Below are positions 12,169 through 13,459 of a stretch of DNA of 64,000 bases, one piece after another (position 1 is the stretch's first letter; each line of letters begins with the position of its first letter). The stretch spans positions 128,001 to 192,000 of the forward strand of contig CBDATR010000010.1 of the NCBI GenBank assembly GCA_965200155.1. The letters run 5' to 3'. The stretch comes from Nitrosopumilaceae archaeon (lineage in GTDB: Archaea; Thermoproteota; Nitrososphaeria; Nitrososphaerales; Nitrosopumilaceae). The notes under the pieces were generated by a model. The model was given only the letters and a program-made list of their open reading frames with translations, made no database searches and was not told the DNA's origin. The translations under genes were made by a program, and so were the position numbers.

Positions 12169-13459
12169 TCATGTCATGAGGTATTTTAGAATATGATTCT
12201 GTATACTATTCCAGTCCCAGAGTACCACGTTAATGTTTGACTGTCTAGCTATCTCCGCTGCCTGGTTGGTGAACCCGCCGGGGCATATTATAATGACAAC
12301 GTTCCCGCCGGATGTGGTCGCAGCACCTAGTGTCTTGTTAACATCCGGCCCGCCACATTGACTCCTCCAGTGTTTGTATTGGATGATTGCCCGCGTTTTT
12401 GTGCCGTTGTCATAGTGTTGTTCAGCTATTATATCAATGCCCTTGTCGGCGCGTGTGTCCCCCAGCATCTTGCCTATTCTCGCATCATATCCCTTTATGA
12501 TAATCCAACCCATCGCCGCCAATATATTAGAACAGACGGCCTCAAAGGCGAACCCGTCGAAGCGGCGCAACCCGGAAACCAAATCATGATTGGTGACTCT
12601 CAAATCAACACCATCTAATATACCACGATTATAGAGATTCACTCGTGTCCCGGGTCTGGCATCAGTTTTCTGTGGTGGTGGCAGTAATTCCTCCAGTTTA
12701 CCATACTTGAGCTTGGTGTCACACGTGATTTCAATGGATAACTTCCCTAGTGCGGAATTATACCATGTTATTGTAGAACCGCGACTCATGAATTTGGTTT
12801 TAGCGTATGCGCCCTCCATGGCAAGGACCACCCTACCATTATTATCAACCAGGTATGGTATATCCGATATCACTAAACGGCGATTCTCGTTCAAGACTAG
12901 TGTCTTGCCTTCCGGAATTGGAGTGGTACGGTTAACAGGGCCACCACCCTCCAGGGTTACACGATATTGGCCTGTCTTGTCTTTTATGGAAATGGTCTTG
13001 CCTGCAACACCGTGCCGCATTACTAGAATATCATAGGAGCCCTTGCGGAATGCCGCCCACGAGAAGGGCGGGCTTATCATGCATGGCGTCACGATGCCTT
13101 GGTCCTGCAAATTATACATCCACGCGGGCACACGAGAAGGGCGGGCTTATCATGCATGGCGTCACGCCTAGAAGTTTGTCACCATAGCATATCGCGCATT
13201 CATCAGTCCCATAAACGTACCAGACGGGCTTGGATTTTTGATAATTGATAGCCCTCTCCCACGCTTTTGTATCCACGCCTCTCAGTCTGATGGTCTTACC
13301 GTGGTGTTTTATAGTTAATCCCAACATACCATTCTTGCACTGGGCTTGGTCGAATGGTATGTCATAGACCGTATGACTATTCTTGTCCATGATGTGAATA
13401 CATGCACTAATATCAATAAGGTGATCTCCTATCCTGCCGGTCGTCACATCATCATTCAC
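12169..13459 (-). pseudogene. Mrr-like restriction endonuclease frameshifted by a 73-bp insertion
   Basis: C-terminal FEAVC, DKGIDII, QYKHW, GGFT..A motifs; both ORFs share VTPCMISPPFS and fuse if 73 bp are removed. Confidence 0.8.
13058..13166. repeat. Repeat-insert-repeat: perfect 36-bp duplication around a 37-bp unique insert
   Basis: CACGAGAAGGGCGGGCTTATCATGCATGGCGTCACG at 13058-13093 and 13131-13166. Confidence 0.92.

Follow-up and report, generated by a model that had tools for sequence, protein, structure and literature searches.

How does a gene come to be interrupted by a short segment that lies between two identical copies of its own coding sequence? The question is raised by a minus-strand gene for an Mrr-like protein in the window, i.e. 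the whole 64,000-nt stretch of DNA that was analysed, which belongs to the 2.38-Mb draft genome (51 contigs, 87.6% complete) of a sponge-associated archaeon. The 36-mers at window positions 13058-13093 and 13131-13166 are identical, and the identity extends by 0 bases on either side; if one mismatch is allowed the same pair reaches 39 nt. By our own arithmetic ~1e-13 perfect 36-nt pairs within 200 nt would be expected in 2.4 Mb of random sequence, so that chance cannot yield a perfect 36-nt direct repeat with its copies 73 nt apart. In the assembly the 36-mer is found at just these two places, and the 37-nt insert between them is single-copy. The elements of the locus are as follows.

12169..13131, minus strand: C-terminal fragment, 320 aa, containing Mrr_cat (PF04471); its listed start is a GTG at the border of the insert
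13058..13093, no strand assigned: target copy 1, 36 nt of Mrr-like coding sequence; identical to 13131-13166 and single copy in the paralog
13094..13130, no strand assigned: insert of 37 nt, spacer-sized; once in the genome, its length being that of the modal array spacer (101/288)
13112..13459, minus strand: N-terminal fragment, 115 aa; out of frame past copy 2, with its stop within the insert
13131..13166, no strand assigned: target copy 2, 36 nt; identical to copy 1, with unitigs of four sequencing runs breaking at 13087 and 13137

An earlier note, made from the sequence alone, had described a perfect 36-bp duplication around a 37-bp insert, and this is what we find, with the insert at 13094-13130 as quoted there. 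Both minus-strand ORFs encode VTPCMISPPFS, as the note had read from their translations. The 115-aa ORF has the C-terminal end ...GVTPCMISPPFSCARVDV, while the 320-aa ORF starts in the insert and then reads ...GIVTPCMISPPFSWAAFRKG.... Removal of 73 nt in silico (i.e. one repeat plus the insert) gives a single open frame of ~407 codons reading ...KLLGVTPCMISPPFSWAAFRKG..., just as predicted. The 73 added nucleotides thus shift the frame and divide the gene in two, an N-terminal piece of 115 aa and a C-terminal one in which the nuclease domain lies. The description of the gene as Mrr-like is also borne out, since the C-terminal ORF matches Pfam Mrr_cat at residues 188-311 with E 1.1e-17 (64.6 bits against a cut-off of 21). 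Against PADLOC the same fragment matches PDC-S02 with E 5e-11, and mREase_IV weakly (E 0.0029). Mrr_cat is the C-terminal domain of Mrr-family PD-(D/E)XK nucleases, and is common to the broken gene and its paralog. The ~300 N-terminal residues of the gene, and the 115-aa fragment by itself, match no Pfam family, and the nuclease role is putative here.

An intact paralog is present on contig C43. This is an ORF of 444 aa with 75-80% nucleotide identity to the broken gene, and an Mrr_cat match of E 7.7e-17 (61.9 bits). On alignment with MAFFT the paralog has one copy of the 36-mer (33/36 identical) and one clean gap of 73 nt, corresponding to one repeat plus the insert; the 73 nt are therefore an insertion with target duplication. 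The single copy and the clean gap uphold the earlier view that the repeat is coding sequence duplicated on insertion rather than a CRISPR-array repeat. The empty state of the Mrr site is seen here by proxy, in the C43 paralog rather than at the exact locus. Alignment to orthologs that lack the 73 bp had been suggested as a check, and this could be followed in part: the 40 relatives contain no close ortholog of the gene and yield just partial matches (65-76% at the DNA level in four same-genus genomes), so that the in-genome paralog with its gap takes their place. None of 200 genomes of the family (0/200) matches the 37-mer at three or fewer mismatches.

The locus was also examined in sequencing reads. 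Seven public runs from two studies contain 91-98% of the 31-mers sampled from window 12600-13600, and three of these runs may be the source. The unitigs of four runs (k = 31) break at 13087 and 13137; this fits a 36-nt repeat with both junctions present, and it is how a real repeat would behave in the test for mis-assembly that the earlier note had called for. Because unitigs at k = 31 break in a 36-nt repeat, an empty Mrr allele would be invisible beside a filled one, and there is no join that skips the 73 nt. The split Mrr-like gene is a real and recent gene disruption.

We note a different join in the same data. Unitig contigs in four of the four runs connect 12107 to 13739, thus skipping 1631 nt that comprise the whole Mrr-like gene and a 73-aa ORF, with flanks that match over just 19-27 nt, so that a repeat or another organism is a possible origin.

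The lengths of the duplication and the insert are found again elsewhere in this genome. The earlier note was right that the gene had been broken by insertion with target duplication, but it missed the likely cause, in that 36 + 37 nt is the unit of the genome's own type I-G CRISPR array. The array (contig C9, 71010-92087) has 289 repeats, all of 36 nt and 287/289 of them identical. Its 288 spacers are mostly of 36 nt (85), 37 nt (101) or 38 nt (63), and the modal period is 73, so that the Mrr unit of 36 + 37 = 73 nt equals the modal repeat plus spacer. Beside the array lie a Cas4g/Cas1g fusion (549-aa ORF; NF049935, E 1e-213, with 710 bits where the cut-off is 560) and Cas2 (TIGR01573, E 1e-8). 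The genome has a single cas1 match. The adaptation module is apparently intact. Past the array and on the opposite strand are a Cas3 extension protein, Cas3g, Csb2 and Cas7g.

Loss of the large subunit Cas8g/Csx17 was considered as a cause and rejected. TIGR04113 was not found in this genome, but it is missing from G005, G006 and G008 too and was found in G001 only, and the loss is therefore not distinguishing. Past the array (C9:92100-110000) there are IS5 transposase fragments where the large-subunit gene might be expected, followed by DUF1156/DUF499 genes of anti-phage type and a DrmD-like helicase. Upstream of the cas locus there are fragments of TnpB.

The Mrr locus is itself not a bona fide CRISPR array. 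It has two copies only of a repeat that is coding sequence and is present in the paralog, and that repeat is identical to the array repeat at 8-11 of 36 positions (a comparison made partly by eye). The Mrr unit would not be expected to yield crRNA, since its repeat is unrelated to that of the array.

The whole genome was scanned for interspersed direct repeat pairs with periods of 40-130, the array being excluded. Pairs at periods of 71, 72, 73, 74 and 75 number 6, 34, 19, 9 and 7 respectively. Most other periods in this range have 0-3 pairs; there are five at period 120, and seven at period 66 that come from a multicopy element. After removal of two tandem protein-repeat arrays, the pairs at periods 71-75 comprise 69 units in 50 sequence families. 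Repeat and insert are specific to each ectopic locus, and the inserts of the 69 units are mutually unrelated. The repeated run is 36 nt in 22 units and 37 nt in 32 (together 54/69), and in 48/69 the repeats are perfect. The mode of the period is 72 for the ectopic units, compared with 73 for the array. Long ORFs are broken as in the Mrr-like gene at four positions of contig C10 (229607, 268681, 288031 and 311421); other units are in frame. Selection for in-frame units is not claimed: a period of 72 is dominant in non-coding sequence too, and the coding families are divided between seven in-frame and seven frameshifting. Two sites (C9 70400/70477 and C24 237593/237669) have been used again, giving mini-arrays of three repeats.

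A control was provided by 800 kb of the same-genus genome G005, in which a Cas4/1 of its own goes with a repeat of 36 nt and a period of 72-73. With the array excluded these 800 kb contain nine interspersed pairs, and none at periods 71-75, where ~23 units are predicted at the density of the present genome. The units are thus not general to the genus or to type I-G, but are particular to this lineage; as G005 has the same CRISPR type and no units, possession of a type I-G system is not sufficient.

A multicopy element (C24:454178, C31:58798, C43:71454 and others) contains a pair of diverged 36-nt direct repeats at a distance of 66 nt, and the 30-nt spacer between them is conserved. Its copies have been struck repeatedly, accounting for 11/69 of the ectopic units.

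Many of the inserts can be traced. Twenty-seven of the 69 copy sequence that is found elsewhere in the genome between unrelated flanks, 18/27 being identical to the source. The match to the source stops at the insert borders, with a mode of 36 both for the maximal insert length and for the minimal duplication. TTN, the type I-G PAM, is enriched next to the sources: it adjoins 11/27 where the control mean is 5.4 (P 0.009), and under a strict boundary rule 9/27 where the control is 3.4 (P 0.005), leaving 16/27 self-derived inserts with no TTN beside the source. Contig C10, with 22.7% of the genome, supplies 15/27 of the sources (P 2e-4). For the Mrr 37-mer itself blastn-short gave no source in its own genome (the assembly being 87.6% complete), there were 0 exact matches in viral_contigs and 0 in metagenome_contigs, and nothing better than E 0.5 was obtained against phages. 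In the absence of a source, no PAM can be assigned to the Mrr insert.

One insert (C25:4797-4831) overlaps spacer 58 of the array by 26-28 nt on the opposite strand, and both therefore derive from the same DNA, which is absent from the assembly. Apart from that overlap and one chance match of 17 nt, 0/288 array spacers match the rest of the genome. The segment at 13800-14550 of the window is a multicopy element, with a summed contig depth of up to ~85,000, and it is the C25 copy of this element that bears the unit overlapping spacer 58.

The ends of the target repeats match the flanks of the sources by three or more bases in 10/27 units, where 1.4 would be expected (P 4e-7). This is not predicted by simple Cas1-Cas2 integration, but might be by a step that uses microhomology. 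The orientation predicted from the PAM agrees with that from repeat-likeness in just 3/11 cases, with two ties, so no coupling of the two is seen.

Beside cas4/1-cas2 there are five units in 11 kb, where 0.33 would be expected (P 2e-5). They include a mini-array (C9:70400-70587; three repeats, two units) exactly between cas4/1 and cas2, in which the duplicated 37 nt overlap both cas1, at its end, and cas2, at its start, so that neither gene is broken. Both of its inserts are genomic copies with TTN adjoining the source, and its repeat is the same as the array repeat at 16/36 positions. In five relatives the cas1 locus is without such a mini-array. Over the 50 families the best identity of the targets to the array repeat has a mean of 12.76/36, compared with 11.49 for random sequence given the same scoring (P 2e-5), and T3, C5, C11 and C26 are the bases enriched at z > 4. 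The Mrr target is no more repeat-like than random sequence, with 11/36 against a control mean of 11.5.

A second unit is present in the window, found in the repeat scan and followed in the runs.

21048..21156, no strand assigned: intergenic unit with a run of 37 nt, an insert of 35 nt and a period of 72

It is situated between a DUF59-like ORF and one of 310 aa, and nine of the first 12 bases of its repeat match the start of the array repeat. In run X7 one contig connects 21047 with 21120, skipping 72 nt, with 37 nt that fit both sides; this is an empty allele. In runs X1, X4 and X5 the contigs have breaks at 21077 and 21127, as at a repeat. The unit thus differs between samples, and the empty allele in X7 could reflect either insertion or loss.

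We consider that the Mrr unit is very probably the scar of an off-target (ectopic) spacer integration by the Cas4/1-Cas2 of this genome. The duplication has the length of the array repeat, the insert is within the range of spacer lengths and an adaptation module is present; a target that resembles the repeat or the leader-repeat junction is a further mark of such events, and in this respect the Mrr site is at the level of the control. From the dimensions, the machinery and the genome-wide family of units we infer that Cas4/1-Cas2 was the catalyst. A duplication and insert that together equal the modal unit of the array, taken with 69 units of the same build, make the CRISPR integrase a likelier cause than some other inserted element. 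In the proposed mechanism the type I-G Cas4/Cas1 fusion and Cas2 would be loaded with a spacer-sized fragment of ~37 nt. Instead of the ends of the first CRISPR repeat, the complex would attack the two strands of the Mrr-like gene at points 36 nt apart, and repair of the gaps would then leave a copy of that 36-nt stretch at either side of the insert.

The units might alternatively have been generated by a non-CRISPR process that adds ~72 nt as a short genomic copy together with a compensating target duplication, e.g. by microhomology repair or template switching. That many inserts copy the genome's own DNA is in keeping with this, as are the microhomology of at least three bases in 10/27 units, the mode of 72 rather than the array's 73, and the lack of TTN at over half of the self-derived inserts. 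Yet such a process would have to produce a duplication fixed at the length of the array repeat (54/69 units have runs of 36-37 nt), an enrichment of TTN, an insert that overlaps an array spacer, a cluster of units at cas4/1-cas2 and targets that are weakly repeat-like. Moreover the inserts are not hairpin-rich (MFE -5.75 against -5.10, p 0.06), and with 0 units in 800 kb of the same-genus genome the process is not lineage-wide. We therefore regard it as improbable.

Two further explanations carry still less weight. The 37 nt could be a tiny mobile element, or the footprint left on excision of a transposon, with a long target-site duplication; the direct duplication that borders the insert is of this form, and fragments of IS5 and TnpB are present in the genome. 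The insert is single-copy, though, and the 69 units carry unrelated inserts, where a transposon or MITE would be a multicopy element with defined ends and a short target duplication typical of its family. This origin is very improbable. No family of transposons that makes duplications of 36 nt is known to us. An artefact of assembly or sequencing might be suspected in a draft of 51 contigs that is 87.6% complete. Against this stand the seven runs of two studies that hold 91-98% of the sampled 31-mers, and the unitigs of four runs that break at 13087/13137 as they would at a real repeat. An artefact would not copy genomic 36-mers to 69 places at CRISPR dimensions, and we give it hardly any credence.

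Off-target integration by CRISPR integrases has been described before. When the type I-E Cas1-Cas2 of E. coli is over-produced, integration at off-target sites spawns new arrays, termed neo-CRISPR (Nivala, Shipman & Church 2018, Nat Microbiol 3:310, as cited in bioRxiv 10.1101/148544, PMC7054753, PMC6698737 and PMC9456107). As the citing works describe them, the neo-CRISPR loci have a spacer-sized insert at a site that is not a CRISPR, between duplicated sequence as long as the repeat, as found here, and re-use of a site leads to mini-arrays of three repeats, as on C9 and C24 here. They arose in E. coli with a type I-E system and over-production, whereas the present units are in the genome of an archaeon from nature whose system is of type I-G with a Cas4/Cas1 fusion; they also differ in that there are 69 units here, at least 27 of them self-derived, several within genes and one polymorphic between samples. 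Beyond E. coli just 'circumstantial evidence' in two further species is spoken of (bioRxiv 10.1101/148544).

The Cas1-Cas2 of P. furiosus is reported to integrate in vitro at repeat-like non-CRISPR sites one repeat length apart (PMC6698737). The off-target sites there keep some repeat-like bases, to be compared with the enrichment of T3, C5, C11 and C26 here, and repeat-likeness is a tendency rather than a requirement (PMC6698737). The experiments used plasmids in vitro (PMC6698737), while the events here are chromosomal, either fixed or polymorphic, and the Mrr target is not repeat-like. A Cas4/1 fusion of type I-U/I-G has been studied in Geobacter sulfurreducens, where new spacers are reported to be mostly 36 bp and TTN, which is the interference PAM, to be found with 50% of unique naive spacers (PMC6547450). 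Spacers of ~36 bp with TTN at about half, in the absence of selection by interference, may be set beside the 11/27 of the present inserts (PMC6547450). The array was the one site at which that study scored integration, and off-target integration is not mentioned in its accessible text (PMC6547450). In the literature that we searched there is no account of a single genome with numerous off-target units that arose naturally in its chromosome.

The kind of mechanism is already known; its natural occurrence with a Cas4/Cas1 fusion is at an unusual scale. Evidence for off-target integration came previously from work in vitro and from over-producing E. coli, the natural evidence being circumstantial in the text accessible to us. 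The present genome provides a natural data set of 69 events ascribed to one Cas4/Cas1 fusion system, with targets, sources, PAM use, a relative that serves as a negative control, and at least one polymorphic site. We suggest, tentatively and as a possibility that may well not hold, that the Cas4/1-Cas2 of this lineage has lost its target fidelity and become a chronic, genome-wide self-integrase. It would then be a mutagenic agent peculiar to the lineage, breaking some genes (that for the Mrr-like nuclease among them), adding in-frame inserts of 24-25 residues to others and seeding mini-arrays, and the units would be an unselected record of capture in vivo. If this is true, the record of DNA capture by a type I-G system is ~40% self, has TTN in ~40%, and is biased towards one contig of 540 kb.

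Several questions become testable in this genome. It is valuable for the study of integrase fidelity, i.e. of what holds the integrase at the leader. The unselected pool of prespacers is another, given that self spacers number 0/288 in the array and 27/69 at ectopic sites. This difference fits a purging of self spacers by autoimmunity only where they are expressed as guides; on a simple reading self spacers would be lethal in the array, where they act as guides, and harmless at ectopic sites. The cost of CRISPR adaptation to the host, in terms of broken genes, is a third. On the tentative reading of a self-integrase, the insertions could be reversible because the units are bounded by 36-nt direct repeats, and the struck genes could thereby be switched on and off; the earlier note had likewise proposed that recombination between the two repeats might restore the Mrr-like gene. 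Caution is also called for in annotation, since two-copy 'mini-CRISPRs' with locus-specific repeats, and small insertions that shift the frame or remain in it, can be CRISPR scars.

Some minor features of the window may be recorded. Positions 1970-2006, 4853-4887 and 28134-28171 are the sources of the inserts at C1:11039, C24:207551 and C10:288031 respectively. A 64-nt tandem repeat (2.7 copies, 95% matches) is present at 10617-10787. The same 9/18-nt tandem motif occurs at 11404-11451 and at 38685-38732, which suggests two copies of one element.
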